A stretch of 17,233 nucleotides of DNA from an uncultured Deinococcales bacterium (GCA_964247135.1 CAXTTL010000093.1:1-17233); one strand, 5' to 3'. Counted from the first letter of the stretch, positions 1,694-17,233 are shown. Notes: a model not told the origin generated them from the sequence alone. A program made the numbers and translations.

Positions 1694-2914
1694 ATGCAAC
1701 CAACAACCCAATTCCAACCCAAAAATCAAGCTCGAGGTTCTTCCAACTCGAGCTTCGCGGTCGTGTGGATTGCGGATGTTCCGAGTTGGGCGGCGCACCG
1801 TACCGATCCGACTTTAGAGGGTCAAACGCTGGTCATCACGGCTGGTCGGCGGGTGGTCGGGTCGGATGCCAGCGCCCGAAGCTTCAAGGTGCGGGTGGGC
1901 GATTCGCTCGAGCGTGCCCGAGGTTTAGCTCCGAACGCGGTGTTTGTGCCGTTTGAAGCCTCGGTGGTGCAAACGGCTTGGGATGCCGCGTTGCACACCA
2001 TGAACGCCTTCACGCCTTGGCTCGAGTCGGGTCAGGTCGGCTTGGCGTTTTTGGCGGGTTTGAACCGGCTCGAGGTTGAAGCGCTGGCACTCGAGTTGCA
2101 GGCGCGGGTTGGACTTGCGCCGTCTCGGGGGTCTGCGTTGATGGCTGCCTTCAGTGCTCGAGATTCCGAGGTGCGCTTGGTGCAGCATGAGGCTGAGTTT
2201 CTTGGGGCTGCACCGACCTATTTGTTGCGGGGTGCGGGTTTGCCCGGTGAGATCATCGAACGGTTGCGGCTGTTTGGCTTGCACACCCTGGGTTCAATCG
2301 CGGCGCTCGAGGCACGCTACCTTCAAGCCCAGTTTGGTGCGTTTGCCCCGCGTTTGCTGGCGCTCTGCACGGGTTTGGACCGGCGCAGCGTTCCAGTTTT
2401 CACGCCCGCGCTCGAGGTCAGTGCCGGCTTTGAGTTTGAATTGCCCGCGATTGAACCGAACGTGCTGTATCCGGCTTTGGATTTTGTGCTCGAGCGTCTG
2501 GTGTTGAGGCTGCAAGATCGCCTCGCCTCGAGTGTGACGCTTGCCTTAAAAACCACCCTTGGTGTCTCGAGTGTGCGTCGATCATTGAAAGCCCCTTCAA
2601 ACGATCCCCGAACCTTGCGCCATGTGGCACTCGCGGCGCTCGAACGGGCGATGACTGGACTCGAGGTGCTGGCGTTGACCGTGACCGCCTCGGGTTTGAT
2701 GCGTCCAGTGCTGGTGCAAGATTCATTGTTTGCGGTGCTCGAGCGTCCCGCCGTGCGCGAGGTGGTGCGCCGCATTTACCAGGGATTTCCGGAGCGTCTG
2801 GGCAGGCTCGAGATCGTTCAACCACGATCCTTGCTGCCCGAACGTCGGTTTCGCTTTCGGGCGTTGACGGGCGAGGAAGTCGGTCAGCCCAAACGCAAGG
2901 GGCGACGCAAGTGA
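1694..2914 (+). CDS. imuY: Y-family polymerase-like protein ImuY/ImuB (N-terminal part), probably catalytically inactive
   Basis: Y-family fingers motif (SARSFKVRVGDSLERARGLAP), HhH-like LRLFGLHTLGSIAAL and beta-clamp motif QDSLF (2717-2731). The SIDE catalytic motif is replaced by ESGQVG. RBS GAGGTGG precedes the ATG. Sits upstream of dnaE2. Confidence 0.85.
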   Translation: MQPTTQFQPKNQARGSSNSSFAVVWIADVPSWAAHRTDPTLEGQTLVITAGRRVVGSDASARSFKVRVGDSLERARGLAPNAVFVPFEASVVQTAWDAALHTMNAFTPWLESGQVGLAFLAGLNRLEVEALALELQARVGLAPSRGSALMAAFSARDSEVRLVQHEAEFLGAAPTYLLRGAGLPGEIIERLRLFGLHTLGSIAALEARYLQAQFGAFAPRLLALCTGLDRRSVPVFTPALEVSAGFEFELPAIEPNVLYPALDFVLERLVLRLQDRLASSVTLALKTTLGVSSVRRSLKAPSNDPRTLRHVALAALERAMTGLEVLALTVTASGLMRPVLVQDSLFAVLERPAVREVVRRIYQGFPERLGRLEIVQPRSLLPERRFRFRALTGEEVGQPKRKGRRK

Positions 2915-3174
2915 AGGTGCTGCACATCCCAGAAAAATGCCTGGTGCTGCTCGAGCATTCAAGGCTCACGATGGTTCGGTGGCGCAACCGTCCGTGGTCG
3001 GTGATGGCGACGCTCGAGGTCTACGTCTGGCACGGCGAGTGGTGGACGACCCCCGACTTTGCTGGTGAACGCCGCGAGTACCACCTGCTCGCCACCAAAC
3101 GCGGTGAGATCGAAGTCTTTTTGCTCGAGCGTCCCGGTCAGACGGCTTGGTTTGTCTCGAGGTGGTTTGATTGA
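2911..3174 (+). CDS. Stand-alone ImuB C-terminal domain protein (ImuB-C / DUF6504-like)
   Basis: GEWW...RREYH...W.VSRWFD pattern typical of the ImuB C-terminus. GTGA overlap with imuY and TTGA overlap with dnaE2. Confidence 0.75.
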   Translation: MKVLHIPEKCLVLLEHSRLTMVRWRNRPWSVMATLEVYVWHGEWWTTPDFAGERREYHLLATKRGEIEVFLLERPGQTAWFVSRWFD

Positions 3175-6100
3175 GCGGCTTTGTCCATTTGCACTCGCGC
3201 AGTTATTTCAGTTTCAGGCGCGGGGCGAGCAGCCCCGAGGCATTGGTGGCGCGGGCGGTTGAACTGGATCAACCCGCCCTGGCGATCACCGATTGGATGA
3301 GTCTGGCTGGGGCGGTGCAGTTTCAACTCGCGGCTCGGGCGGCTGGGATTCACGCGGTCATCGGGGCAGAGGTGCTGCTCGAGCAGCATCCGGTGGTGCT
3401 GTTGTGCCAGAGCAATGCCGGTTATGCCGCGCTCTGCCGCTTGCTCTCAAAAGCGTTCAGCCATGAACACCCTCACCTCGAGTTTGTTGACCTCGAGGCA
3501 GATCATGGTGATTTGTTGATGTTGGCTGGAGGTCCGGACAGTTTTATTCGCTCTTGCCTCGAGCAGCACCAACCGCAGACCGCGCTCGAGTGGCTCGGGC
3601 GGTGCAGTGCCTTGATGGTGGATCGGGTGGTGGTTGAACTGTCCTCACACCGATTGCCTGGGGACTCGAGAATGCTCTCGAAACTCAGCAACCTGGCACG
3701 AACCGCGAGGTTGCCCGTCGCGGCGACCAACGCGGCTCGCTATGCGGTTCGGGAAGATTGGATTCTTCACGACCTGCTGACCTGCGCTCGGCTCGGCATC
3801 AGCGTGGCAGAGGCACACCCTGAGCGTCCAGACAACAGCGAAGCCTATTTGAAGACAGAAAGTGAGTTGAGATCGCTGATCCGTTCACCCCAAGCCTTTA
3901 CGACCCCGCTGAATCTGGCTCAGTCCTGTCAGATGGACTTGCTCCCCGGGGCGATCACCCCTCCAGGGGCGAACCTGCCCTTGGGCGTCCGTCCCGATGA
4001 GGCGCTCGAGGCGATGTGTCGCGCCGCCCTACCCAAACGCTACCCGAGTGCCAGGTTCACACTCGAGTACCGCCGTCGCGCCAGGGCGCAATTAACCCAC
4101 GAACTCGAGGTGATCGGGGCACTCGAGTTGAGCGAGTTTTTTTTGGTGGTCGCGGAAGTGGTGCAGGCGGCAAGGGATTTGGAGGTGCGGCTGGCAGGAC
4201 GGGGCAGCGCCGCGAACTCCATCGTCGCATACTTGTGTGGCGTGACCGGGGTTGATCCGCTCGAGCACAATCTGTTGTTTGAACGTTTTTTACACACCGG
4301 CAGGGCGGGCACGCCCGACATCGACGTTGATTTTCAATCGTCTCGCCGTCTCGAGGTGATCCACTGGCTCGAGCAGCGCTTTGCCGGACAGACCGCGATG
4401 ACCGCCAACGTCATGACCTACCGATTGCGTTCCGCCGTGCGAGATGCCGCCAAAGTGCTGGGGTTTCCGCTTGAGGTCATTAACCGAGCCAACAAGCGTT
4501 TGCCGCACGGCTCGAGTGCCAAACACGTGCGCCAACACCGTGAGGCGCTCGAGGATATTTTTGGCTCGAGTCCACTGTTTGAAAGCCTGCTCGGTTTGGT
4601 CGAACGGATGGCGGACGTGCCGAGGACGCTGGGACAGCATTCGGGCGGAATGCTCTTGACCCGAGATGCCCTGACCAACCACACGCCGATTCAAACCAGT
4701 GCCAACGGGGTCAAACAGGCGGTTTTCGCTAAAGACGATGTGGAGGCGATGGGACTGGTGAAATTTGACGTGTTGGGGTTGAGAAGCCTGGACGTGGTGC
4801 AAGGCAGTGTAGAGAAGCACCTGGCTGCCACCGGTGAACGGCTCGAGATTGATGATATCGCGCTCGACGATCCTCGGGTTTTTGCTTTGATTTGCTCGGG
4901 CGAAACACTGGCATTGTTTCAGATCGAGAGTCCTGGGCAGATGCACCTGATCGCCAAACACCAACCCAGGACATTTCACGCCCTGATCGCCCAGATCGCG
5001 CTCCTGCGTCCTGGTCCGATTGAGGGCGGGATGGTCAACACCTTCGTCAATCGCGCCTGTGGACTCGAGGCGGTACGGTTCGCCCACCCGAGTTTAGAGC
5101 CGATTCTGAGCGACACTTACGGGGTGATTCTGTACCAAGAACAGGTCTTGCAAGTCACACACCTCTTTGCGGGCATGAGCTACGGCGAATCGGACGATTA
5201 CCGCCGACTGATGAGCAAATGGCGCGACGGCGATCAAATGCTGGCGATGCGCGAACGCTTTGTCAGCAAAGCGCTCGAGACGCACCCCGACTGTTCGCTC
5301 GAGGTGGCTGAGGAGGTCTTCCGGCAGGTCAGCCACTTTGCTGGCTACGGTTTTCCCAGAAGCCACGCGGCGAGTTTTGCCAAAACGGTCTATCAAACCG
5401 CCTTTTTAAAGCTGTACCACCCGGCGGCATTTCTCGCCTCGGTGATGGAATACCACCCTGGGATGTACCCCAGGCAGAGTTTTGTGCTCGAGGCGCAGCG
5501 CTGCGGGGTGACGGTGCTCCAGCCAATCCTCGAGCGTTCCAGCCTGGGATTCACACTCGAGCGTCACGATCAACAATTGGCGATTCGGCTGCCGCTCGAG
5601 GGCATCAAAGGGATCGGTGTGGAGCAGGCTCGAGCCATCGTGCTCGAGCGCAGCGCCAGACCATTTTCGAGCTTGGAAGACTTGTATCGCCGGGTTCGCG
5701 TGCCAAAAGCCGTGCTGGCCAGCCTCGCCCAAGCGGGAGCGCTCGAGGGCTTTGGGTTAAGGCGGGAGGCGCTCTGGTCGCTCGGGGTGCTCGAGACACA
5801 ATTTGGACCTCCGGGCGGTGAAACGCCGTTGCTGCCCACGCCCGCCGCGACGGACTTGCCCGACCTCGAGTTGCTGACCAGTTTAGAGCTTGGAAACTGG
5901 GACGCGCGAACTTACAGTGCCTCGCTCGAGCATCCGATCTCGAGGGTAAGACCACGACTCGAGCTGGGTGGGGTCACGACAATCCGCGAGGCGAATCGAG
6001 CCAACGTGACCATCGCGGGTTTGGTGATCGCCAGACAACGACCACCGGCGGCGAAAGGTTTGGTGTTCTTGTATCTTGAGGATGAGACTGGGCGAATGCA

Positions 6101-6275
6101 GTGCGTGGCAAGCCCCCAGGTCTGGGAGCAACTTCAATCTGCGCTACGCGCCCCTGCCATTATCTTGGCGGGACAAATTCAACGGCGCGGGCAGTGGCGC
6201 GGCTTGATGATTCGGGACGCTCGAGCGCTCGAGGTCGGCTTGAAAGGGGGACGCTCGGGCTTGCCTCGAGCCTAA
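3171..6275 (+). CDS. dnaE2: Error-prone DNA polymerase III alpha subunit DnaE2 (ImuC)
   Basis: PHP HLHSRSYFSF and ALAITD; GRGSAANS; catalytic PDIDVDF; QHSGG; KFDVLGL; FQIESPGQ; YGFPRSHA; OB-fold RQRPPAAKGLVFLYLEDETG. 1034 aa, in imu context. Confidence 0.95.
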   Translation: MSGFVHLHSRSYFSFRRGASSPEALVARAVELDQPALAITDWMSLAGAVQFQLAARAAGIHAVIGAEVLLEQHPVVLLCQSNAGYAALCRLLSKAFSHEHPHLEFVDLEADHGDLLMLAGGPDSFIRSCLEQHQPQTALEWLGRCSALMVDRVVVELSSHRLPGDSRMLSKLSNLARTARLPVAATNAARYAVREDWILHDLLTCARLGISVAEAHPERPDNSEAYLKTESELRSLIRSPQAFTTPLNLAQSCQMDLLPGAITPPGANLPLGVRPDEALEAMCRAALPKRYPSARFTLEYRRRARAQLTHELEVIGALELSEFFLVVAEVVQAARDLEVRLAGRGSAANSIVAYLCGVTGVDPLEHNLLFERFLHTGRAGTPDIDVDFQSSRRLEVIHWLEQRFAGQTAMTANVMTYRLRSAVRDAAKVLGFPLEVINRANKRLPHGSSAKHVRQHREALEDIFGSSPLFESLLGLVERMADVPRTLGQHSGGMLLTRDALTNHTPIQTSANGVKQAVFAKDDVEAMGLVKFDVLGLRSLDVVQGSVEKHLAATGERLEIDDIALDDPRVFALICSGETLALFQIESPGQMHLIAKHQPRTFHALIAQIALLRPGPIEGGMVNTFVNRACGLEAVRFAHPSLEPILSDTYGVILYQEQVLQVTHLFAGMSYGESDDYRRLMSKWRDGDQMLAMRERFVSKALETHPDCSLEVAEEVFRQVSHFAGYGFPRSHAASFAKTVYQTAFLKLYHPAAFLASVMEYHPGMYPRQSFVLEAQRCGVTVLQPILERSSLGFTLERHDQQLAIRLPLEGIKGIGVEQARAIVLERSARPFSSLEDLYRRVRVPKAVLASLAQAGALEGFGLRREALWSLGVLETQFGPPGGETPLLPTPAATDLPDLELLTSLELGNWDARTYSASLEHPISRVRPRLELGGVTTIREANRANVTIAGLVIARQRPPAAKGLVFLYLEDETGRMQCVASPQVWEQLQSALRAPAIILAGQIQRRGQWRGLMIRDARALEVGLKGGRSGLPRA

Positions 6276-6279
6276 ACCC

Positions 6280-6852
6280 ATGTGCGGCAGTTACGGCAAT
6301 CAGCTCGAGGTTCAGGCGTACAGGGATTTGTTTGGTCTGAAGGTTATCCCAGACCTGCCAGAACGAACGCTGTTTAGACCCACGGATGTTGCACCGATCA
6401 TCACCAATCAAACGGGACTCGAGTTGCGCCTTGCCCGTTGGGGCTTTTCGCAACCGCCGAACGCCGGCAAAAAGCTGGCTTTGTTTAATGCTCGAGATGA
6501 CAAGCTGGTTTCGTCCCCAACCTGGCGCGAGGCGTTTCGCTCGAGGCGCTGCGTTGTTCCGATGAGTGAATTTCATGAGTTTTCAGGAGTCAAAGGGGCA
6601 AAAGTGCGTCATGCCTTCCAACCCAGTCACGCCCGAGCCTTCATGGTGGCGGGACTCTGGCAGGACGGGCATTTCTCGCTGATCACGACGCACGCCAACA
6701 GCACCGTCTCGAGCTATCACGACCGAATGCCAGTGATCCTCAAACCTCGAGACGTGGAAGTGTGGCTCGAGCCTGGTGTGGCTGTGGGGGAATTGTTGTG
6801 GTTGTGCAAACCGTTTTTGGCAAATCGAATCAGTGTTAGTTCGATGTTTTAA
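6280..6852 (+). CDS. SOS response-associated peptidase (SRAP/YedK/HMCES family abasic-site protein)
   Basis: N-terminal MCG (Cys2), RWG, FNAR, FRSRRCVVP..EFHEF, AGLW, ITT.AN, HDRMPVIL. Starts 4 nt after the dnaE2 stop. Confidence 0.9.
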   Translation: MCGSYGNQLEVQAYRDLFGLKVIPDLPERTLFRPTDVAPIITNQTGLELRLARWGFSQPPNAGKKLALFNARDDKLVSSPTWREAFRSRRCVVPMSEFHEFSGVKGAKVRHAFQPSHARAFMVAGLWQDGHFSLITTHANSTVSSYHDRMPVILKPRDVEVWLEPGVAVGELLWLCKPFLANRISVSSMF

Positions 6853-6954
6853 ACTGAGTTTTGAACTGAAGTATAAAATGTGAGCAAGTTGTAAAATCGT
6901 TAGCACTACCCCCAATACTATGGACTTCTTTCGCACGCTTTTGAGGTTTTAAAG

Positions 6955-8514
6955 TTAACTACGTACTGGACGTATAACAGCAGGGAGCATGTCAGGTTCG
7001 CCGTCCCAATTGACCAGGATTGGTGGAAGCCAGTGGAGCACTGCCTCACGCACTTGGGTATCTCGAGGTCCACGGTAGAAATGATGGTAATGTGCTCGCC
7101 TCACGTGGGGGATGACCGTGTGACCACTTGAGGCTTTAAGCCCATTAGCACCTGGGTCATCAAGGTTTTCTTTGGCTTTTCGCAGGGCTGCACCGAAACG
7201 GAATCCTGTGTACCAGGTTGTCGGTTCTGCGGGTGGTTTATCATGGCGAATTGGGGACTTTGGTGTTGGTGTTTTACGGGTTAAGTCTGGTTTTTCGGTT
7301 CGCAAATACAACAACACCGAGACAAATTGCGCCAAATCCTCTAGCTCTTCGTCGGCAATTTTTTGCAAAAAATCGGGTTCAAACTCGTCGCCAAAGCGCT
7401 GTTCGTGTTCGACCAACGTCTCAAAAATGGTTTGTCCCAGCGGAAATGTGTTCGGTTCGAGTTTTGGTCCATATTCCCAGTCATCGATGTCAAGCAACAA
7501 ACAGATGTTGCGCTCATCGGTTTCGATGTTATGGTCAAGAAAGGCAAAAAATCCATGCAGGGGATTTCGACGCTGAGTTTCTGCGTATTGGTTTGGTGTC
7601 GCAACGTAGATACACCAGGCGGGTAAAGTGTTGAGGGTATCAATTGGAAGATTGTCTGTAACTTCAGTGTTGAGCAGTGCCTCGAGCAGCGTCTCGTCAA
7701 ATTCAAAAATGTACTTTGACCAGCGCCAGGCGGCAAGTCCAGCCAGGACTTCAGCGTGCATACCGACATACATTTGGTAGCCCTCGGGCGGTTGTTTGGG
7801 ATCAACTTTGCCCCATAGGAATTCGCCGCCTGCGGCGCTTGGTACAAAACAAGATTCGTGCCACAGCGGGAGTGATTCGCCCCGCTCTGCTCTCACCTCA
7901 TCAAAGAATGTCCAGACATCCGAATACGCCGCACTCCATTGACGAAAGTGCGCCAAAGCGCGTGGGGTGTTGTTTAGAAATGCTTTTGGCACTGCTCGTT
8001 TGATGCGCAACACTCGACGCGGGATCGTTTCTGCTGTTGGTGCAGTGCGCAACGAACCGCGTTTGGCTGCGACTTGCAAGTGAATCAAAACCATCGGCAC
8101 TTTAAGGGTCCAGAGAAAAAGAGGATGATCATGCTGAATGTCACGTCCGTACAACAGTTTGCGCGGTTCATCTCGACATATCAGTATCGTGATTCTGAGG
8201 CTTTGAGTCTCGTGACGAACCTCAATTTCGCAGCTTGCCCAATCTCTGTCTTTGTCTGGTGATTCAAAGGTTTGATTTAGTTCCATTGCTCTCAATTGTG
8301 ACTCGAGTTCAGGACTGGACGCCGCAAGCGGTTCGCAACGTATCAGACCATAATGGCGTTCGCTGTCATCTTCAATTTGAATGGCTCGAGGCTTGGACAA
8401 GAAATCAAACGCCAGTTCGCCCTTTGGAATTTCATCATCGATTTGCATGAAGGTAAATCGGTCCATCACAAATATCGCGTCTTGGAAAAATTGCGAGTCG
8501 ATATTGTCTGGCAT
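6955..8514 (-). CDS. AcrVA2/FinQ-family protein with N-terminal extension (copy 1, ~519 aa)
   Basis: C-terminal ~340 aa has AAWRWSKYIFEFDE, LPAWCIYV, HGFFAFLD, LLYL...PD, GFRFGAALR, PHVRRAHYHHFYRG (7081-7110) and HWLPPILVN, in the order I recall for Moraxella AcrVA2. ATG 8514 is preceded by AGGGGG. The ORF extends to a TTG at 8748. Confidence 0.75.
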   Translation of the reverse strand: MPDNIDSQFFQDAIFVMDRFTFMQIDDEIPKGELAFDFLSKPRAIQIEDDSERHYGLIRCEPLAASSPELESQLRAMELNQTFESPDKDRDWASCEIEVRHETQSLRITILICRDEPRKLLYGRDIQHDHPLFLWTLKVPMVLIHLQVAAKRGSLRTAPTAETIPRRVLRIKRAVPKAFLNNTPRALAHFRQWSAAYSDVWTFFDEVRAERGESLPLWHESCFVPSAAGGEFLWGKVDPKQPPEGYQMYVGMHAEVLAGLAAWRWSKYIFEFDETLLEALLNTEVTDNLPIDTLNTLPAWCIYVATPNQYAETQRRNPLHGFFAFLDHNIETDERNICLLLDIDDWEYGPKLEPNTFPLGQTIFETLVEHEQRFGDEFEPDFLQKIADEELEDLAQFVSVLLYLRTEKPDLTRKTPTPKSPIRHDKPPAEPTTWYTGFRFGAALRKAKENLDDPGANGLKASSGHTVIPHVRRAHYHHFYRGPRDTQVREAVLHWLPPILVNWDGEPDMLPAVIRPVRS

Positions 8515-8578
8515 CCTGAACCCCCTGTTTGTCTCGAAGAATACGAAAGTTGATTCGGTTGTAAGTCTGTTAGGTGTA

Positions 8579-8587
8579 AGTTTACCA
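8579..8587 (-). promoter_or_regulatory. Possible extended -10 promoter for AcrVA2-like copy 1
   Basis: TGGTAAACT (TGn + TAAACT) on the minus strand, ~65 nt upstream of ATG 8514. Confidence 0.35.
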
Positions 8588-8829
8588 TCCGACACCACGA
8601 CAAGATCGATTTTTGCGACGAAGGACGATGTTGATGCAATCCATGAGGGGAATAGTTTTGTCTGGTGTGGGACGTATGAATTCTGCGAAACGCGTGCATA
8701 AGTGGTTGAAAACGTCCTAAATGCAGAATTCGTTTCTACTGTAGCCAATTCAAGTCTGGCGCTCCCACTTTCTGGGCCAAGCTTTGAAGTCGGTGCCAGC
8801 CGTTTGGCAATGAGTTTTGAATTTCAATA

Positions 8830-8866
8830 TTGCATAGATGTTACATTTAATGTACAATCTATGCAA
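8830..8866. promoter_or_regulatory. 37-bp inverted repeat operator overlapping the abiE promoter
   Basis: TTGCATAGATGTTACATT-T-AATGTACAATCTATGCAA, arms 16/18 identical. Contains + strand TTGCAT(8830-35)-N17-TACAAT(8853-58). AbiEi antitoxins are known to autorepress through promoter inverted repeats. Confidence 0.85.
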
Positions 8867-9481
8867 ATGAAGGCTCGAGAAACCAATAACACAACCAAAA
8901 CCCGAGCCGCCGAATTGTTCCAAGTTGCCGATCGGCAGGGCGGCTATTTCAGTGCAGGTCAAGCGCTTGCCCTCGGCTATTCGCGGCGTTTGCATCATTA
9001 CCATCGGCAGCAAGGTCACTGGCTCGAGGTGAATCGCGGTCTGTTCAGACTGCGCGATTATCCCGTCACGCCAGACGAAGAATTGGTGAAATTAAGCCTC
9101 TGGAGTCGTGATCTCAAAGGTCAACCGCAAGCGGTGATTTCACATGAAACGGCTTTAAGACTTTATGACTTAAGCGATTTGATGCCTTCAAAGATTCACC
9201 TGAGCGTCCCCAAGAACTTTAGGAAAACACCACCAGAAGGGGTTGTCTTGCATAAAACTGCTGTCGAGCCAAACGATGTCGAAGCTCGATCTGGATTTCG
9301 AGTCACCTCACCGATGCGAACCTTGATTGATGTCGCCGATATGCACATCAGTCCCGAACACCTTAAAACAGCCACCCAGCAAGCCCTTGAACGTGGTTTG
9401 GTGCGGCGCAAACGACTCGAGGCTGCCATAACCAAGTTCGGTACTTCGAACCGCCTTGAGCGGGTTTTGAGGAGCTTATGA
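8867..9481 (+). CDS. abiEi: Type IV toxin-antitoxin antitoxin AbiEi (wHTH transcriptional regulator)
   Basis: ADRQGGYFSAGQALALG...W..V.RGLFRL wHTH, VISHETAL..YDLSD..P..IHLSVP, VTSP.RTLID. Start placed at ATG 8867, just after the -10. ATGA overlap with abiEii. Confidence 0.9.
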   Translation: MKARETNNTTKTRAAELFQVADRQGGYFSAGQALALGYSRRLHHYHRQQGHWLEVNRGLFRLRDYPVTPDEELVKLSLWSRDLKGQPQAVISHETALRLYDLSDLMPSKIHLSVPKNFRKTPPEGVVLHKTAVEPNDVEARSGFRVTSPMRTLIDVADMHISPEHLKTATQQALERGLVRRKRLEAAITKFGTSNRLERVLRSL

Positions 9482-10323
9482 AATACAACACGGCTGGGGC
9501 GTTTCGCCAAGCGATTGATGCCAGATTGACCCGCCAAGCCAGCGAAGAGGGCATTGATCGGGTTCGTTTACAACGACGGCTCGCGTTTGAACGTTTTTTG
9601 GCCCGACTGTTTCATCATCACACCGACCGATGGGTGCTCAAAGGCGGATATGCGCTCGAGTTGCGACTCGGAGGACGGGCGAGAGCCACCAAGGACATGG
9701 ATTTTAACGCGCCATCAGGATCGGCTGAGGAATTGCTTGAGGAGTTGCGAGACGTGAGCGAGCTTGACTTGGGCGATTTCTTTCGCTTTTCAATCCTCAA
9801 ACCACCGCGAGGTGAGTTGCTTGGTCCACCCGAAGGTGGACACCGTTTTCGGGTCGAGACACGCCTTGACAGCACCCGCGTTTATGCGACTTTTTTAATT
9901 GATGTTGGACAAGGGGACGTGTTGTACAATCCTGTCGAAAACATCCCTGCTCGAGTGAACCTCGAGTTTGCGGAACTGGCTACGCCACCATTCCCGAGTT
10001 ATCCCTTACCTGAGCATTTTGCCGAAAAATTTCATGCCTATACCAGACCGCGCAGTGAGCGAACCCGAGTCAAAGACCTGGTCGATTTAACACTGATCAT
10101 CGAAGACCTTGAGTTGAAACCCAGCCCTGCCCTGGCGATGGTGATTGAAATGGTGTTTGAACGCTACAACACTCACCCATTGCCAAAAGCAAATCAGGTT
10201 GATCCGCCTCCTGAGTCTTGGCGTGAACCATACCGTGTGACGGCGGAGGAACTGGGATTGGGCACGACTGATGTTGTAAAAGCCTTAGAGCGGGTTCAAA
10301 GCTTTTTGACTCAATGCTGGTGA
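9478..10323 (+). CDS. abiEii: Type IV TA toxin AbiEii (nucleotidyltransferase, AbiEii/AbiGii family)
   Basis: ERFLARL, WVLKGGYALELR...RATKDMDF (GG...DxD), AEKFHA, RVKDLVDL. Confidence 0.92.
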   Translation: MKYNTAGAFRQAIDARLTRQASEEGIDRVRLQRRLAFERFLARLFHHHTDRWVLKGGYALELRLGGRARATKDMDFNAPSGSAEELLEELRDVSELDLGDFFRFSILKPPRGELLGPPEGGHRFRVETRLDSTRVYATFLIDVGQGDVLYNPVENIPARVNLEFAELATPPFPSYPLPEHFAEKFHAYTRPRSERTRVKDLVDLTLIIEDLELKPSPALAMVIEMVFERYNTHPLPKANQVDPPPESWREPYRVTAEELGLGTTDVVKALERVQSFLTQCW

Positions 10324-10373
10324 TCGTTTGTGCATTAAGCTTGAACGGTCAAAGCCAGTAAAAGGAGGCTTAA

Positions 10374-12239
10374 ATGAATAAGGTCAATCTTTTTTTTGAC
10401 GCAGCACTCACCAAACACGCCCCAGACGTGCCATTCGAGATGTTGCAAGAGGAGACATTGGTGCTCATTGCCGATGAGACGCTAATTCCTTTGGCTGAGA
10501 AAAAAGCGACCACCACGCGGTTTCCTGAACTCCCAACGGTCTTTTTTGATTATGACTTTGTTTGGATTGAGTTCCGTAAATCGTTTGCTGAACACGAACG
10601 TCAACGCCTTTTGCCTGGAATGTCTGGTGGCACTGGCGTCATGGGACAATATTATGACCTCGAGAACCTTGCCCTGCGAGAGACTTTAGAGCAATCCTGG
10701 CGACAACGTTACAGAATACCGGGTATTCCAAATCAAGCGACTGATGCGTTGGTTTTCAAAGTCTTTGGTGAAAAAAGACTTCAAGACAAAACCTTTGATC
10801 CGGCTGGAGCAGAATTCGGCGTTGGGCTTTTGCTTTTTGACGCGGAAGGTGAACCCTTCGGTGATGGATATTTCGGTGTGATTCCACCGCCTGAAAGTGA
10901 AATTGACCGTCAAAGTTTTTTGCGATCACGCCCAATGATGGGTGATTTTGTGATTCAAAGGGTGCAGTATTTTATCGCCATGCTTGAGCTTTTGGATAAC
11001 AACCACCTGAGCTTTGAAGAGGTTCTCGAATCCTCTCGAGGAACACCTTATTTTCACTTGTTGCCGACAGAATCTCAAAAGAAGTACGTTGAATACAGCG
11101 AGAAGATTGCAGGTCTATCGAAAACCAAAGTTGAACTTGGTCACGAAACCAACCTGCTGCCAGGTGAGATTCCTCGAGCACTTGGACACTTTCGCCGTGC
11201 GAGCACACTGTTCTCAACCATTTGGAGCAAAGCCCAAACTCTACGGAACGAATACAGCGCTAAATTTCCAGAGTTGGCTCGGGTTGTGTTTTTGCCAGCC
11301 GACTCTGGAATCAATTTGTTGCAACAATTGCGCTCAGTACCCAAATACGGCGATACCTTGCGCCTACCAACTCAGGATGAGAGACTAACGAATTCGTTGT
11401 CGCTGAGGGGCACACCTTGGCTTCGACGAGCCGACAAGGTTGATATTGAGGTTCAGGATGAGGCGGCAGCCTTGGTTGGACTGGCGGCGTGGCGATGGAC
11501 CAAAGGTATCTACCGCTTTGATGAAACCTTGGCGCTCGAGCTGCAAAAAACCGAAATTCGTGGGCAGCTACCGATCCAACTCATGGAACGTCTGCCCGAT
11601 TACTGCGTGTACATCGAAACGCCAAACATGGTTTTTGAAGAGATACCGCTGCACGGATTTTTTGCCTATCTCGATATTGACACCAGCGGTCAACGTTGGG
11701 TTGTGTTCTTGCTGGATACCAACCTGAATATGTACGGCGACATTCTCAAACCACGCTTTGTTCCACTCGGAGTCACCATCGAGGAGGGTGCATTTCTCGA
11801 GCCAGACCTTGATTTCTTGCCACTCGAGGTCAACGCGGTCGCAGAACTTTCACCATTGATTTCAATGCTGATGTACCTGACCAGCGACCAGCCCGATGTT
11901 TTAGAACTAAATCCGATTCCAGTCTCAAAGACCGCTTCAAACCTTGAGAAACCCAAAAGCGAACCTCGAGTTTGGGAGGTGGGCGTGCGTTTTGGGGCGG
12001 CGCTGCGTGGCGGGCTAGAAACACCAACGGCTGAAAATACTTCTGGATTGAGCGGCGTTCACGAACCGATCCGCCCGCACATGCGTCGGGCGCACTGGCA
12101 CGGGGTTTGGACTGGACCTCGTTCCGATCTGAGCAAACGCCAGCTTTCGCTGCGATGGTTTCCACCGATCCCAGTCAATTGGAATCCTGATGCTGAGGAT
12201 GATCAAATGCCAGCCGTGATCCATCAGGTCAACGATTGA
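10374..12239 (+). CDS. AcrVA2/FinQ-family protein with N-terminal extension (copy 2, 621 aa)
   Basis: RBS AAGGAGG. From aa ~266: PRALGHFR, AAWRWTKGIYRFDE, LPDYCVYIE, HGFFAYLD, MLMYL...PD, WEVGVRFGAALR, PHMRRAHWHGVWTG (12075-12101), RWFPPIPVN. Clearly paralogous to 6955..8514. Confidence 0.8.
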   Translation: MNKVNLFFDAALTKHAPDVPFEMLQEETLVLIADETLIPLAEKKATTTRFPELPTVFFDYDFVWIEFRKSFAEHERQRLLPGMSGGTGVMGQYYDLENLALRETLEQSWRQRYRIPGIPNQATDALVFKVFGEKRLQDKTFDPAGAEFGVGLLLFDAEGEPFGDGYFGVIPPPESEIDRQSFLRSRPMMGDFVIQRVQYFIAMLELLDNNHLSFEEVLESSRGTPYFHLLPTESQKKYVEYSEKIAGLSKTKVELGHETNLLPGEIPRALGHFRRASTLFSTIWSKAQTLRNEYSAKFPELARVVFLPADSGINLLQQLRSVPKYGDTLRLPTQDERLTNSLSLRGTPWLRRADKVDIEVQDEAAALVGLAAWRWTKGIYRFDETLALELQKTEIRGQLPIQLMERLPDYCVYIETPNMVFEEIPLHGFFAYLDIDTSGQRWVVFLLDTNLNMYGDILKPRFVPLGVTIEEGAFLEPDLDFLPLEVNAVAELSPLISMLMYLTSDQPDVLELNPIPVSKTASNLEKPKSEPRVWEVGVRFGAALRGGLETPTAENTSGLSGVHEPIRPHMRRAHWHGVWTGPRSDLSKRQLSLRWFPPIPVNWNPDAEDDQMPAVIHQVND

Positions 12240-12240
12240 A

Positions 12241-13095
12241 TCAGGGTCGAATTCGACGACCAAGTTTGCTGGCAGCGATTCGGCGATTGATCTTCGCCGC
12301 CCCGATTTGGACGAATTCGGCAACAAGCTGATGTAGTTTCGAGGATGTAATTTCAGCTCGAGCGGCGCATTGTACACAGTAACCAACGGCGCGAATTTCG
12401 AGTCTGACGTGCTCAAATGCCTCGATTGAATTTTGGGTGTTTTGAAGCTCGAGCCACCAGCCATGCAATGGGGTTTGCTGAAATTCTCGTTCGAAGAGTT
12501 TCCAAAGCAGTTCGAGCAACTTGTGATCCAGGTCTTCAAAATTTATGGCACTGATGGCTTCGGTTTGCGTTTGGAGCACGGCTGGGGCATTGGTGAATGA
12601 CTTTTCGGGCACTACGGAGTTTGCGGTTGGCGCAATCGCTATAAACGTGGTTTTGTTGGTTGACGGCACGGCTTTCCAAACCCGTACCGATGACGGTTTG
12701 CTTGGGCGTTTTTGGCGTTTGCGCTTGGTTACGCGCACCACTTGTGGCGGCGGATCAGGATGGTCTTGCAGCTCGGCTATGTTGAGAAGTTGAGCTTTGA
12801 GTTTTTGCTGGGCGATAAGAAGTTTGTCGCGCTGTCGGTAAATTTGATTGAGGTAACGAAAGCATTTGAGTGCCTTGTCCAGATCGCTGACCTCAAGGTA
12901 CGCATCGATTTTTTGGATGTGCCGATCTATTGAGGTTGTTAGCTGCTGCTCTGCACGGTTAAAAACCTCAATTTTGTCGGAGGCGCGTTCAAGATCAGCG
13001 ATGTATTCAATACTTTTTGCATGGAGGTCAGGGTCGTTGACGACATGCCCAATCAAATTAACCTTAAGCCGGCTCGAGATTTGGAGATGACCCAT
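12241..13095 (-). CDS. Hypothetical protein (~284 aa; helical N-terminal region, basic/low-complexity linker, C-terminal domain)
   Basis: Long ORF (extends to 13224). ATG 13095 has AGGAG 7 nt upstream. Converges on copy 2 with a 1-nt gap. Confidence 0.6.
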   Translation of the reverse strand: MGHLQISSRLKVNLIGHVVNDPDLHAKSIEYIADLERASDKIEVFNRAEQQLTTSIDRHIQKIDAYLEVSDLDKALKCFRYLNQIYRQRDKLLIAQQKLKAQLLNIAELQDHPDPPPQVVRVTKRKRQKRPSKPSSVRVWKAVPSTNKTTFIAIAPTANSVVPEKSFTNAPAVLQTQTEAISAINFEDLDHKLLELLWKLFEREFQQTPLHGWWLELQNTQNSIEAFEHVRLEIRAVGYCVQCAARAEITSSKLHQLVAEFVQIGAAKINRRIAASKLGRRIRP

Positions 13096-13153
13096 CGAAA
13101 GACTCCTGACCAGCAAACTCTGAAATGGTATTTTGAAGTTGTTTTGCGGTCTG

Positions 13154-13182
13154 ATTCTACAACATTGGGCAATTTGTGACAC
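13154..13182 (-). promoter_or_regulatory. Putative sigma70 promoter for the 12241..13095 gene
   Basis: Minus strand GTGTCA-N17-TAGAAT. Confidence 0.45.
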
Positions 13183-13334
13183 GTTTTCAAGGGGTGGTGC
13201 GTTTTGTGTCATACTTGATGGCAAATGTAAAAGCCCGTGGCAATATTTGTGTTTTGGTTACTCACGATGCGTAATTTTGTTGCTTTAAACCATGGATTTT
13301 GATTGCCCGCGTCTTTTGAGAATATGGGGTTGGT

Positions 13335-13478
13335 ATGAATTGGAAACGCTTGACGGTGTTGTCGATTTCGCTGGTTTTGAGCTTGGCATTGGCTCAGGTG
13401 TCAACCACAGGGGTGCAACTCCGTTTTACGACGATGTTTTTCCTGCGATGTACAGGTGATTGTTGCCATACCACTTAG
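13335..13478 (+). pseudogene. Probable truncated remnant of a secreted protein (47-aa ORF)
   Basis: MNWKRLTVLSISLVLSLALA|QVSTTGVQLRF... is a clean Sec signal peptide followed by only ~27 residues before a stop. Confidence 0.35.
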
Positions 13479-13568
13479 TTTTATGCACGCTTCATCAGAT
13501 GTTTCAAGGTTGTTTAAAGCTCACCGACCAAAGAGTCCAACTTCTTAAAGTCCATGCTAGCCTAAACC

Positions 13569-13823
13569 ATGCAAGTGGTGATCGATGACTTTGAGAACCA
13601 AGTCGCTCGGCTCGAGACAGCCGAACTCGAACAACTTATCATCCCTCGAGCCTGGCTGCCCAGTGACGCCCGCCCTGGCGATCACCTCCAAATCGATGCC
13701 GACCAAGCGGGTTTGATCCAAATCACCATCGATCACCAGGCGACCCAGGCTGCGTTCGAGGCGGCTCGAGAGAGCCTCGAGTCACTCACCGCGAGCGACG
13801 ATGGAAAGGACCTACAACTGTGA
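13569..13823 (+). CDS. DUF3006 family protein
   Basis: VIDDFENQVARLE...IPRAWLPSDARPGDHL.I pattern. GTGA overlap with the MBL hydrolase, a common partner. TG-c-TAGCCT-N5-ATG suggests a leaderless start. Confidence 0.8.
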   Translation: MQVVIDDFENQVARLETAELEQLIIPRAWLPSDARPGDHLQIDADQAGLIQITIDHQATQAAFEAARESLESLTASDDGKDLQL

Positions 13824-15679
13824 AACGATTGTTGCTGACCTGTCTGCTGGTGGTGGGATTTGCCCAAGCGTTCGCCCAAAAGTTGCAAATTGATTTTTTG
13901 GATGTTGGTCAGGGGGATGCGGTGTTGATCCGAACCCCCGATGGACACGCGGCGCTGTATGACGCTGGACGGAACGCGCTCGAGGTCGCCAACCAATTGA
14001 CGCAACTCGGGGTAACGCATCTTGACCTGGTCGTGATGAGTCATGCCGATGCCGATCACATCGGCGGGATGGCGGAAGTGGTTGAGAAATTTTCTCCCCA
14101 AGCCTTTTTAAGTAACGACCTGCCGAGTGCCACCGGAACGTACACGAAAACACTCGAGAGCCTCGCACGAGTCGGTGCTCAAGGGTTGAAAGCCACAGAC
14201 CGCATCATTGGGCTGGGCGACCAGGTTCAACTACAAGTCTTGCCGCCAGAACACCGCAACACCGATCAAAACGAGAATTCGGTAGGCATTTTGCTGGAAT
14301 TCTACGATTTTCGCTTGGTGCTCGCAGGCGACAGCGAACCCGCCACACAGCGCTATTGGCTTTCCAAATTTGCCAGCAAACTCGCTCATGTGGACGTGTA
14401 CAAGTCCAGCCATCACGGTTCAAAAAGCAACGACACCCAGATCTGGCTCGAGGCGCTCAAACCCCAGGATGTGGTGATCAGCGTCGGAAAGGGCAACGCC
14501 TATGGACATCCCTCGATTGAGGCTATCGCACTTTACAACAGTGTCAGGGCTAGGGTTTGGCGCACCGATCTCGAGGGGCGGATCAGCTTCAGCGTCTCAC
14601 CTTCGGGTTTATACTCTGTCAAAAGCCGCGAAATTGAAATCAATCGCAATTTGCGTGTCAACCCGAGTTTGGACATCAGCGCCTTCGCCAAGCGAGCCAC
14701 AGTCACCACGCGCCCGCTTCACAACTCAAACCAAAGTTTGATTGCCTTTGAGCCAATGCAGGTCAACGCGCTGTTGAGCATTCAAGACGCCAACGGCAGG
14801 GTCATGACCGGTGCTTTAACGACAGGAACGTATTACTTGACCCTTAGCAATCCTGGCTTTGTTCCCATTCGAGAACAGGTCACGATTAGCGACGACACCA
14901 AGCAAGTCGTGGTGGCAGTCGATGAACTTCAAGCCAATCCAAGTGCCAGCCCAACGAGCCTTACTTGGGTGGGAAGCAACCTCGAGTATGCCGTCTTTGT
15001 GATTCAGGATCGCGTTTTTGTGCCGGACATTTCGCGTTTGAAACCTGGTGAGTACACGGTGGTCTACCAATCGAGGTTTGAACCTTACAAATTGAGCCTC
15101 GTCACGGTGCGTTTGGAGGCGGACGTCAACCTCGAGTTGACGACGCCCAAATTAGGCGGGCGCGTTGGCGTGAACCCACGGACTGCCATCGTGTCCTCAA
15201 CGGTGGTGGTCGCACTCTCGTTGGTGATCTCGCCAAGTTGGGCGCTTTTCAACTTCGATCAACCGCTCAGTCCAGAGTCCAATGGGCACAACTTCCAGGG
15301 CAGCCAAACCCCGAGTGCAACCACAACGGTCGGTGATTTGGATTGTCGTGATTTCCCATCGCAGGCGAGCGCTCAAGCGTTCTTCGATGGTTTGGGTGGG
15401 GTGGGGCACGATCCTTACGATTTGGACCGCGATCATGATGGGATTCCATGTGAACGAAACGAGGACTGGACGATCAAACCCAATGAACCCCGTCCGGGTA
15501 GAACGGCAAGCACGCCCGCGCCGTTAATCACACCATCAGTTCCCTCAACGCCGGCAACCCAACCCAGTCCACCAGCGCCGTCCACGCCGACGACCACACC
15601 GAGTTCAGGTTGGTGTTGGGTCAATGGATACACCAAGAAAAACGGGACTCAGGTGGCAGGCTACTGGAGGCGATGCTGA
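13820..15679 (+). CDS. Secreted ComEC/Rec2-like metallo-beta-lactamase-fold hydrolase with beta-rich middle region, Excalibur Ca-binding domain and Pro/Thr linker
   Basis: Signal peptide ending AQAFA|Q; FLDVGQGDA; YDAG; SHADADHIGG; NENS; GDSE; HHGS; NAYGHP. Later DLDCRDF...DPYDLDRDHDGIPCE (Excalibur), P/T/S-rich linker and CWVNGYTKKNGTQVAGYWRRC tail. No ComEC membrane domain. Confidence 0.85.
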   Translation: MKRLLLTCLLVVGFAQAFAQKLQIDFLDVGQGDAVLIRTPDGHAALYDAGRNALEVANQLTQLGVTHLDLVVMSHADADHIGGMAEVVEKFSPQAFLSNDLPSATGTYTKTLESLARVGAQGLKATDRIIGLGDQVQLQVLPPEHRNTDQNENSVGILLEFYDFRLVLAGDSEPATQRYWLSKFASKLAHVDVYKSSHHGSKSNDTQIWLEALKPQDVVISVGKGNAYGHPSIEAIALYNSVRARVWRTDLEGRISFSVSPSGLYSVKSREIEINRNLRVNPSLDISAFAKRATVTTRPLHNSNQSLIAFEPMQVNALLSIQDANGRVMTGALTTGTYYLTLSNPGFVPIREQVTISDDTKQVVVAVDELQANPSASPTSLTWVGSNLEYAVFVIQDRVFVPDISRLKPGEYTVVYQSRFEPYKLSLVTVRLEADVNLELTTPKLGGRVGVNPRTAIVSSTVVVALSLVISPSWALFNFDQPLSPESNGHNFQGSQTPSATTTVGDLDCRDFPSQASAQAFFDGLGGVGHDPYDLDRDHDGIPCERNEDWTIKPNEPRPGRTASTPAPLITPSVPSTPATQPSPPAPSTPTTTPSSGWCWVNGYTKKNGTQVAGYWRRC

Positions 15680-15763
15680 AGGTTGTTTGCAAGTGGCGGC
15701 GAAGTTTATTTCCACATTAAACCCAGCGACGAAAAATTGGGTTTTCAATCACAGGAGTTTGGC

Positions 15764-16288
15764 ATGAAATCATTTTCAATCGTTGTTTTCTGCATTGTGT
15801 TTGCCGTGAGTGGCGTGCTGGCCGCGCCGTTGCTTGGCTCGAAAAACTCTTTTTACGAGTCAACGTTTTGTAAGTTTTACCTCTGCGATTTGACCTCCAA
15901 ACAATTGATGACTTCGACGCTCGAGGAATTCCGTTACACCACCGCGAACCCGACCCCCACCGAACCCAATGCCATTCCCGAACCGGGCAAGACCGTTTGG
16001 GTGCTGCGTGAAAACGGAATCATCGTCAGCGGTGGCATGGAATTCGGCGTACAAGACAGCATGTTCGGCTATGGCGGTAACAATTTTGTGAAGCGTTTCA
16101 TTGAGTCGTTGACCGACACTCGAGTCTCAGACGAACAACTGGTTCAACTTGAAGCGCGAGCCGGGCGATCCAAGGGTGAAGTGCGAATTCAGATTGGGAA
16201 ATCCGTCAAGAAGATGTACTTATCGATGCTGATCTCGAGTGGTGAGTACGGCAATGCCAATCGTCTCTCGCTTCGCGTGTCGCTCTAA
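15764..16288 (+). CDS. Secreted hypothetical protein (174 aa)
   Basis: RBS CAGGAG before ATG 15764. Signal peptide MKSFSIVVFCIVFAVSGVLA|AP. Confidence 0.7.
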   Translation: MKSFSIVVFCIVFAVSGVLAAPLLGSKNSFYESTFCKFYLCDLTSKQLMTSTLEEFRYTTANPTPTEPNAIPEPGKTVWVLRENGIIVSGGMEFGVQDSMFGYGGNNFVKRFIESLTDTRVSDEQLVQLEARAGRSKGEVRIQIGKSVKKMYLSMLISSGEYGNANRLSLRVSL

Positions 16289-16419
16289 ACAAGGGGTTTG
16301 ATGTGCTGGTGCAGGTGGGAACCTCGACTCGGCATGGCACAACCGAAGTTGCAACAAGTTCTGATTTTTTTGCCGTACAGCTTGGAGTTTCTTGGATCTT
16401 GGAACGCTATACTCGAAAG

Positions 16420-17001
16420 ATGAAACGCTTAATGTTGGTGGTGGTTGGCCTGTTCGCCACGTCACTTGCCGTCTCAACACCTTCGCGCGGTTTGGGTTTG
16501 ACCCGCACGCAATGGGAAGCAAACCACAAGAAAACCGGATTTGGGAATCTCGGCGTGCAATACGGGGACGTTGAGGTGCTGTTCGCCAAAAATCGAGTGC
16601 AGCAAATCATGTTGCTCGCCGACACGGAACTTCCAGCCCAAGAAGCCATCTCGAGCATCAAAAGCTTTTTGCCACGCGATGCCAAAGCCACCACGCAAGT
16701 TAAAAACGAGAAGAAAAGCAATGTTGTTTTCAATTACTCGAGTGCCAGCCTGGGCAAGTTGCATTTTCAGTACAACAATTTTGCAGACTTAAAAGGGTTG
16801 ACTCGGCTGATGATCGCACTCGGGGACAAGCCAGTTTCGGCAATGCAAGCAAGTTACCCAAAAAAGCCTCCATTCTTTTTTGCAAACTGTGAGGATTTGA
16901 ATGAAAAATTCCCAGATGGTGTGGGCAACTGGCACGCTTCATACCGTCCCAAACTTGATCGGAACAACAACGGATGGGCATGCGAACCGACTCCCCGTTG
17001 A
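16420..17001 (+). CDS. Secreted Excalibur calcium-binding domain protein (193 aa)
   Basis: Signal peptide MKRLMLVVVGLFATSLA. C-terminal FANCEDL...GV...HASYRPKLDRNNNGWACE. TATACT-N6-ATG leaderless-type start. Confidence 0.8.
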   Translation: MKRLMLVVVGLFATSLAVSTPSRGLGLTRTQWEANHKKTGFGNLGVQYGDVEVLFAKNRVQQIMLLADTELPAQEAISSIKSFLPRDAKATTQVKNEKKSNVVFNYSSASLGKLHFQYNNFADLKGLTRLMIALGDKPVSAMQASYPKKPPFFFANCEDLNEKFPDGVGNWHASYRPKLDRNNNGWACEPTPR

Positions 17002-17060
17002 ATATAAATCAATTCCGTTGGCGCAGTGCCGTGTTCGATTCGCGACGTTCGGGCTTGCGT

Positions 17061-17233
17061 TCAATCATTTGGTTTGCTGTTTTGCTCTGGCTTTGTTCTG
17101 ACGAGTGTTTCAGCTCGAGTCAACTCAACATAGTCTTTACCCATGTCAAACGTGTTTCTGCGGGCTTCGCACCAGGCAGCAAATTCAGTGTTGTTCATAT
17201 GCTCAGGGTGAGCGCGAAGCCCAAGTGGCCACC
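17061..17233 (-). CDS. Possible 3' end of a hypothetical gene entering from the right edge
   Basis: Minus frame is open from the window edge: WPLGLRAHPEHMNNTEFAAWCEARRNTFDMGKDYVELTRAETLVRTKPEQNSKPND*. Confidence 0.35.
   Translation of the reverse strand, partial: WPLGLRAHPEHMNNTEFAAWCEARRNTFDMGKDYVELTRAETLVRTKPEQNSKPND

Follow-up and report, generated by a model that had tools for sequence, protein, structure and literature searches.

We analyzed a 17,233-bp stretch of DNA from an uncultured Deinococcales bacterium (GCA_964247135.1, CAXTTL010000093.1:1-17233; hereafter the window), which is the whole of contig C93 in a genome that is 84% complete and assembled in 386 contigs. Four genes occupy its center: a gene for a 519-aa protein, P0008 (6955..8514, minus strand); the pair abiEi (8861..9481, plus strand, 206 aa) and abiEii (9478..10323, plus strand, 281 aa); and a gene for a 621-aa protein, P0002 (10374..12239, plus strand). 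P0008 and P0002 thus bracket abiEi-abiEii and point away from each other, with P0002 immediately downstream of the pair and in the same orientation. A preliminary description, made from the sequence alone, had proposed that the outer genes encode paralogues related to the anti-CRISPR AcrVA2 and the plasmid fertility inhibitor FinQ, and that with the AbiE toxin-antitoxin (TA) pair they make up a new TA-stabilized anti-defense or anti-competitor module.

Both outer open reading frames (ORFs) were present as first described. That of P0008 is open over 6955..8748 on the minus strand, as far as a TTG, and the ATG at 8514 was accepted as its likely start because a G-rich Shine-Dalgarno (SD)-like sequence, CAGGGGG, lies upstream of it and because 8515-8748 scores as non-coding on codon usage (-0.15, vs. 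+0.11 for 7966-8514). The P0002 ATG is preceded at 5 nt by the SD sequence AAGGAGG. BLASTP aligned the two proteins at 36% identity (133/369 residues, E 2e-59), restricted to their C-terminal ~340-355 aa, which is the shared domain reported earlier, and all three motif pairs quoted for that domain, including PHVRRAHYH/PHMRRAHWH and WLPPILVNW/WFPPIPVNW, can be read in the translations.

P0002 and P0008 are members of the AcrVA2/FinQ family. In phmmer searches the AcrVA2 chain 7ci1_A of the PDB was matched by P0002 at E 3.9e-15 (query residues 352-602 to chain residues 59-317) and by P0008 at E 1e-13 (261-502 to 78-317), and both proteins matched phrog_6160 (E 1.9e-36 for P0002 and 2.3e-43 for P0008). 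A precomputed Pfam assignment places both in PF26125 ("AcrVA2-like"); the Pfam copy we used, which is without PF26125, gave nothing for either protein, nor did the copies of NCBIfam and PADLOC. From 112 short-form relatives we built a family hidden Markov model (HMM) with 336 positions, which matched P0002 and P0008 at E 7e-80 and 6e-85, in both cases over HMM positions 6-335. AlphaFold2 predicted the cores with confidence (predicted local distance difference test, pLDDT, mostly > 85 from residue ~265 in P0002 and ~180 in P0008). When the two models were compared with the PDB by Foldseek, the only hits at E <= 0.001 were 7ci2_A, 7ci1_A and 7ci1_B (prob 1.00, TMt 0.63-0.67), with 7ci2_A at E 1.4e-15 and TMt 0.66 for P0008 and at E 1.1e-14 for P0002; the next-best hits stood at E 0.09 and 0.075.

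Relatives on mobile elements were sought by tblastn with P0002, the sole paralogue searched there. Matches came from 758 plasmid records (614 conjugative), some of them to genes annotated as "protein FinQ" (E 3e-20, 8e-21 and 2e-21), and from 47 phage records, one of them annotated AcrVA2; coverage of the query was below 80% in every plasmid and phage record. A metagenome scan with the same protein returned a single distant locus, at 33% identity and in the C-terminal part.

The residues on which AcrVA2 depends are conserved as well. According to a preprint (Marino et al.), AcrVA2 activity is weakened by W79A and D89A and abolished by H286A, R288A and H291A. By manual count on the phmmer alignments (PDB chain numbering is +1), the equivalents of H286, R288 and H291 are H569, R571 and H574 in P0002 and H470, R472 and H475 in P0008, and these three columns are invariant in alignments of 150 and 114 sequences; W79 and D89 correspond to W373 and D383 in P0002 and to W263 and D273 in P0008, in columns that are invariant or at least 90% conserved in the same alignments. 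The family assignment made in the preliminary description is right, since sequence and fold both match and all five functional residues are kept. The same preprint also bears out the link to FinQ and the mRNA-loss mechanism: FinQ is described as a homologue of AcrVA2 that blocks transfer of the F plasmid and reduces tra mRNA, and AcrVA2 as causing a translation-dependent fall in cas12a mRNA through recognition of the N-terminal polypeptide (Marino et al., preprint). AcrVA2 homologues are reported there to be widespread on mobile elements without Cas12a. A 2026 review adds that the C-terminal part of AcrVA2 associates with ribosomes, that a recruited cellular enzyme does the cutting, and that no prokaryotic protein before AcrVA2 had been found to eliminate a single specific mRNA by reading the nascent protein encoded by it.

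The window proteins are unusually long. Their family, with 3,388 representative clusters at E <= 0.001, is a large one of mostly short proteins. For the 148 best representatives the median is 347 aa, and for 80 family loci on viral contigs it is 345 aa, with a maximum of 463 aa; long forms of at least 400 aa are a minority (14/148). The HMM covers residues 183-518 of P0008 (about 6958-7965) and 266-620 of P0002; because this coverage takes in the 336-position model, each paralogue is read as a complete core with an N-terminal extension, of ~180 aa in P0008 (residues 1-~180, 7975-8514) and ~260 aa in P0002 (residues 1-~260, 10374-11171). The extensions are coding in frame (+0.22 and +0.11, vs. 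-0.35 to -1.17 out of frame), and these scores rule out mis-called starts as the origin of the long proteins.

Both extensions are orphans. Word-index searches returned the query alone, no relatives were found by phmmer against the 150 top family members or by tblastn against the source genome and all loci examined, and the Atlas feature scores of 0.80-0.83 are at chance level. The extensions are also unlike each other (local z 0.17; global score reached by 26 of 400 shuffles), and the 27% identity between them in a MAFFT alignment was ruled out as real homology by shuffling. An origin by internal duplication of the core was likewise rejected, as no second HMM hit appeared even with --max. Elsewhere in the family the picture is similar: in an all-against-all comparison of 15 long forms the extensions were unrelated to each other, and Pfam recognized 0 domains in the 10 other long forms submitted to it.

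In a tree of 83 representatives (341 columns), P0002 and P0008 are sisters (SH-aLRT 98), and on this phylogenetic evidence a single duplication gave rise to both, with divergence to 36% identity thereafter. The divergence is uneven: identity is 15-32% over P0002 residues 261-360, the first 100 residues of the core, 42-53% over 361-470 and 531-621, and 22% over 471-530.

A third, truncated AcrVA2-like copy of 237 aa lies elsewhere in the source genome (contig C109, 7973-8683; locus L143), matches HMM positions 9-256 (E 6e-23), is without the HxR..H region, and sits among housekeeping genes, adjoining orphan ORFs and genes for HD-domain and ABC-transporter proteins. Another family member, the 749-aa protein P0130, matches HMM positions 8-146 at residues 22-194 and then positions 7-332 at residues 349-743; the N-terminal half of its core is partly repeated in tandem, which shows that the putative recognition half can duplicate within one protein.

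The genes between the paralogues were confirmed by both Pfam and PADLOC. AbiEi, called from M54 of the ORF 8702-9481, matches the PADLOC model at 1.9e-65, from residue 52, and Pfam AbiEi_4 with 27.4 bits (cut-off 25). AbiEii, a predicted nucleotidyltransferase, matches PADLOC at 2.2e-79 and Pfam PF08843 at E 2.7e-31 (109.8 bits, cut-off 22.5), and the columns of its GG...DxD and K/D motifs are invariant among 13 clade members. The stop of abiEi and the start of abiEii overlap by 4 nt (9478-9481). By domain content and gene order the pair is a canonical AbiE type IV TA system.

Only 50 nt separate the abiEii stop from the P0002 start, and no terminator-like site was found between 10323 and 10374. 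Because of this short gap, the strong ribosome-binding site and the lack of a terminator, P0002 is probably co-transcribed as the third gene of the abiE operon. P0008 is transcribed divergently from the same 346-bp intergenic region (8515..8860). At the abiEi end of this region is an inverted repeat (8830-8866) with 18-nt arms that are 89% complementary and 1 nt apart; it overlaps the abiEi ATG (8861) and contains the promoter-like pair TTGCAT (8830)-17 nt-TACAAT (8853), which was read by eye and is absent from the promoter scan list. Of 14 orthologous loci, 4 have a palindrome of the TTACA..TGTAA type where abiEi is projected to start. In AbiE systems, AbiEi represses its own operon through inverted repeats in the promoter, and AbiEii has GTP-dependent nucleotidyltransferase activity. 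The position of the 8830-8866 palindrome at the putative abiEi promoter fits such autoregulation together with a leaderless start; it is a putative AbiEi operator, and the start of abiEi is putatively leaderless or nearly so.

At a locus in another genome of the same genus (L139, G002:C304, 4195-8044), an orthologous abiEi-abiEii pair is separated by ~0.7 kb, within which a 160-aa ORF runs on the other strand, from a downstream 526-aa orphan ORF in the orientation of abiE, which has no Pfam domain and is not AcrVA2-like. The AbiE operons of this genus may carry variable downstream passengers.

The association of AcrVA2-like genes with AbiE did not recur in the genomes and loci we examined. In a sample of 364 genomes of the phylum, 18 had an AcrVA2-like match and 77 an AbiEii match (including the unpublished G325); the family to which the window belongs has 18 other genomes, all of them without an AcrVA2-like match. 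The synteny that the preliminary description proposed to look for in other Deinococcota was not found: among the 17 other phylum genomes with an AcrVA2-like gene, AbiEii was present in two, on other contigs, so that adjacency was seen in 0/17. The 80 viral-contig loci (up to +-10 kb) held one family member each, and tblastn and phmmer found a match to the window's AbiEi or AbiEii in none of them. A Pfam census of the 147 immediate neighbors in these loci gave HTH_3 (5), HTH_31 (5), integrase (2), S24 peptidase (2), D12 methylase (2), HicB-like (2), Aca2 (1) and an AbiEi_4-type helix-turn-helix (HTH) protein (1; E 4e-7); AbiEii did not appear among the best 25 of the 43 families in the census. 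At three plasmid loci from Deinococcota the family member lies beside replication, helicase, methyltransferase or ArdC-like genes, and AbiE is absent. Approached from the other side, tblastn and HMM searches found no AcrVA2-like gene within up to 8 kb on either side of the 14 AbiE pairs closest to that of the window (tblastn identity 44-58%), and the clade of AbiEii to which the window's copy belongs was not found in viral contigs. A plasmid search with AbiEii returned 15 records, none of them among the 25 of 758 AcrVA2-like plasmid records listed, which is a weak comparison. Neither the AbiE linkage nor the two-copy arrangement is therefore that of a recurrent module in these sets (0/17 phylum genomes, 0/80 viral loci, 0/14 AbiE loci), and the juxtaposition looks like a lineage-specific, one-off neighborhood.

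The base composition of the locus sets it apart from its left flank. G+C at third codon positions (GC3) is 0.44-0.54 across 6955-13224, vs. 0.62-0.70 in the dnaE2, SRAP and metallo-beta-lactamase (MBL) genes on either side. The hexamer CTCGAG, which has a median density of 6.6/kb in this genome and reaches 11.8/kb in the neighboring dnaE2 cassette, occurs at 3.19/kb in the island, within the lowest 2.4% of 614 genome windows and about 13 times the chance expectation (0.24/kb). In the right flank (13225-17233) the density is 3.99/kb, and the word does not mark the right-hand boundary. By composition, 6955-13224 looks like an acquired and partly ameliorated island that either has been resident for a long time or was derived from a related genome. 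At its ends we found neither an integrase or tRNA gene nor direct repeats. CTCGAG density and GC3 are alike in abiE and the genes that flank it, and for this reason abiE is apparently not a later insertion. The preliminary description had held that its module would fall if the AbiE pair were a recent independent insertion never linked to these genes elsewhere; we found no linkage in the other loci examined, and no sign of recent insertion in GC3 or CTCGAG density.

CTCGAG itself deserves mention. It occurs 33,926 times in the 5.09 Mb of the source genome (6,663/Mb, about 27 times expectation); the counts for three other hexamers are 1 (GAGCTC), 7 (GGATCC) and 49 (CTGCAG). Of 8 loci fetched from further genomes in this family, 7 have a similarly high density (6-8.7/kb); loci from the phylum's other families have 0-2.4/kb. 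CTCGAG looks like a family-wide highly iterated palindrome, and its local density may serve as a marker of residence time for acquired DNA; a literature search for "CTCGAG" together with "highly iterated palindrome" found nothing.

Taking the evidence as a whole, we lean towards the view that P0002 and P0008 are functional, duplicated AcrVA2/FinQ family members that silence two different genes other than cas12a, with one of them under AbiEi control and the AbiE association confined to this lineage. By analogy with AcrVA2, the conserved C-terminal part of each paralogue, with its HxR..H motif, would work at the translating ribosome, the variable N-terminal parts would recognize the nascent chain of one particular protein, and this recognition would lead to loss of the corresponding mRNA via a host RNase. 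Two different targets, neither of them Cas12a, appear most likely because the N-terminal third of the core is the most diverged and the extensions are unrelated; host genes or the genes of rival mobile elements are candidates. Two effectors of different specificity had already been suggested in the preliminary description, and the pattern of divergence suits that suggestion while leaving it conditional. P0002 would be transcribed with abiEi-abiEii from a promoter repressed by AbiEi via the 8830-8866 palindrome, so that AbiEi might act for P0002 much as an Aca repressor does in an acr operon.

The earlier expectation that the target is probably not Cas12a also appears plausible. The Cas12a model TIGR04330 (cas_Cpf1) had no match in any of the 364 phylum genomes, including the source genome, although this negative is weak, as the search was without a positive control (the model was silent in all 14 control genomes). 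Since no Cas12a was found in the genome or the phylum sample, the window proteins are not expected to inhibit it. A CRISPR system of another type is present in the source genome: contig C9 (652-11128; locus L148) carries a complete-looking type I-C set of Cas3c, Cas5c, Cas8c, Cas7c, Cas1c and WYL genes, adjoining a TPR protein that matches PADLOC models, and no repeat array was found within the first 16 kb of that contig.

Several points weigh against our favored explanation. The extensions fold at pLDDT < 50, and there is no indication that they act as recognition domains. Co-transcription of P0002 is argued from a 50-nt gap and the lack of a consensus terminator, and the lack of conservation applies to the sets examined. 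The case for an acquired island is one of composition, because integrase, transfer and phage genes are missing from the window and because relatives gave no empty site: their dnaE2 cassettes are conserved, the synteny downstream is not, and the contigs are short. The source genome, moreover, is incomplete.

The alternative that survives best, though we consider it unlikely, is the integrated module, in which AbiE stabilizes the cassette by addiction or regulates it and the AcrVA2-like effectors are the payload, or in which all four genes form one abortive-infection or anti-defense circuit. The layout invites this idea, as P0002 follows abiEii so closely without a terminator and P0008 shares the divergent control region with its operator-like palindrome. 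The similar GC3 and CTCGAG density of all island genes also do not suggest that abiE came later, and both copies were kept on either side of abiE while they diverged. Regulators or antitoxins adjoin family members on viral contigs, too (the HTH_3, HicB-like and AbiEi_4 genes among the 147 neighbors). Against all this stand the failure of the arrangement to recur in the 17 phylum genomes, the 80 viral loci or the 14 closest AbiE loci, and the absence from viral contigs of the AbiEii clade concerned.

Somewhat less probable still is an exclusion function, in which the paralogues, like FinQ, would silence incoming plasmid or phage genes from a defense-type island and would not be anti-defense proteins at all. 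The FinQ activity described above is a precedent for this, and the company the genes keep is consistent with it, including AbiE and a Bub-type E1 and DUF6527 pair at 1-1075; phage or plasmid backbone genes are lacking in the window, and the truncated third copy resides among housekeeping genes. Most relatives, however, are carried by conjugative plasmids and phages, the three Deinococcota plasmid relatives adjoin replication, helicase, methyltransferase or ArdC-like genes and no AbiE, and no PADLOC defense model matches P0002 or P0008. The direction of the conflict is not something that the sequence reveals.

A more speculative idea, which we regard as improbable, is that abiEi-abiEii-acrVA2-like is a true three-gene system, in which AbiEi represses a nascent-chain-directed mRNA silencer that is functionally coupled to the toxin. 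The silencer might, for example, recognize the nascent protein of an invader, or of the TA pair itself, and so set off or restrain AbiEii, and the divergent sister copy P0008 would add a second specificity. If this were true, AcrVA2-like proteins would be programmable sensor or effector parts of abortive-infection systems, with a role beyond that of anti-CRISPRs.

That the two genes are decaying passengers, non-functional relics of an old mobile element whose extensions are read-through of formerly non-coding or unrelated sequence, seems very improbable: the orphan extensions with low-confidence folds, the lack of relatives in the genome's own family (0/18 genomes) and the clearly truncated copy on C109 agree with it, but neither ORF is interrupted, no residue of known importance has been lost, the extensions are coding in frame, and P0002 has a consensus SD.

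The remainder of the window is occupied by genes of other kinds. Within the island, and convergent on P0002, is the orphan ORF P0157 (12241..13224, minus strand, 327 aa), which has a K/R-rich center, shares the low GC3 and low CTCGAG density of its surroundings, and scores as coding (+0.12, vs. -0.32 and -0.60 in other frames); it had no Pfam, PHROG or PADLOC match and no paralogue in the source genome. The left end (1-1075) is the 3' end of a Bub-type ubiquitination-like operon, where the contig begins within a ThiF/E1-like gene (Pfam ThiF 1.5e-11, weak PADLOC E1-E2 hits) and a DUF6527 gene (E 4.9e-25) follows; DUF6527 is identified as BubE, a serine protease, in a 2024 preprint. Next comes a cassette (1694-6852, GC3 0.70) of an imuB-like (IMS) gene, an 87-aa ORF, a DnaE2-type error-prone polymerase (1034 aa) and an SRAP/YedK-like gene, whose conserved counterparts in other genera of the family are 54-63% identical at the protein level. 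To the right of the island (13569-17001) are genes for a DUF3006 protein, a 619-aa protein with a metallo-beta-lactamase fold and an Excalibur Ca-binding domain, a 201-aa orphan and a 232-aa Excalibur protein, a possible cluster of secreted, nuclease-type proteins; conservation of the DUF3006-MBL pair was seen in a genome from another genus of the family. The last 55 bases (17179-17233) are the identical reverse complement of positions 4539-4593 of the 4.6-kb contig C311, which encodes a TPR/BTAD-type regulator and is probably the assembly-graph neighbor of the window. No Rfam family at gathering score and no tRNA were found in the window, and no sequencing runs are listed that cover 6900-13300.

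What is new here is limited to the long-form architecture and the sister-pair layout, the family itself having been described already. We found no description of the sister-pair layout or of linkage between the AcrVA2 family and AbiE in the literature, although the supplements of the Marino et al. preprint, with a tree of ~1,800 orthologues, may include long or TA-linked forms. The term "AcrVA2-like" was not found in the literature searched, and FinQ and AcrVA2 were found together only in that preprint. The locus adds family members in Deinococcota-type genomes, together with their long-form architecture, and no new kind of system. Its interest is that the AcrVA2 family is large and occurs mostly where Cas12a is absent, and that one copy of this sister pair may be under a TA antitoxin and repressor. 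With a conserved effector half and completely different N-terminal parts, the pair offers a natural test case for the way in which this family encodes its target specificity, and if the paralogues deplete different transcripts, swaps of their N-terminal parts would test polypeptide-specific programmable gene silencing.

Among known systems, the closest comparison is with AcrVA2, the anti-CRISPR of a Moraxella bovoculi prophage (PDB 7CI1/7CI2). The window proteins are homologous to it over the whole of its ~320 aa and have the same fold, with the equivalents of W79, D89, H286, R288 and H291 kept, although identity is only 18-21% and is seen in structural alignment. They differ from AcrVA2 (322-323 aa) in their length of 519 and 621 aa, owing to the orphan N-terminal extensions, and in their setting, since the AcrVA2 gene lies beside acrVA1 in a prophage and the window genes are a sister pair around a TA system. 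FinQ, the fertility inhibitor of IncI/F-like plasmids, belongs to the same family, with 26-29% identity, but is a short form found on enterobacterial conjugative plasmids, unlike the long proteins described here. As in other AbiE systems, the pair in the window consists of a winged HTH antitoxin and a DUF1814 nucleotidyltransferase toxin in an overlapping bicistron. A palindrome lies at its putative promoter. The pair differs in having a third gene, of a different family, downstream in the same orientation with no terminator between, an arrangement seen in 0/14 of the closest AbiE loci. Finally, in acr-aca operons the HTH repressor is not a TA antitoxin, as it is here, where the toxin gene also comes in between and the regulatory link is one that we infer; the likeness to those operons is that an HTH repressor gene heads an operon containing a gene of an anti-CRISPR family, and HTH and Aca2 genes are also neighbors of family members on viral contigs.

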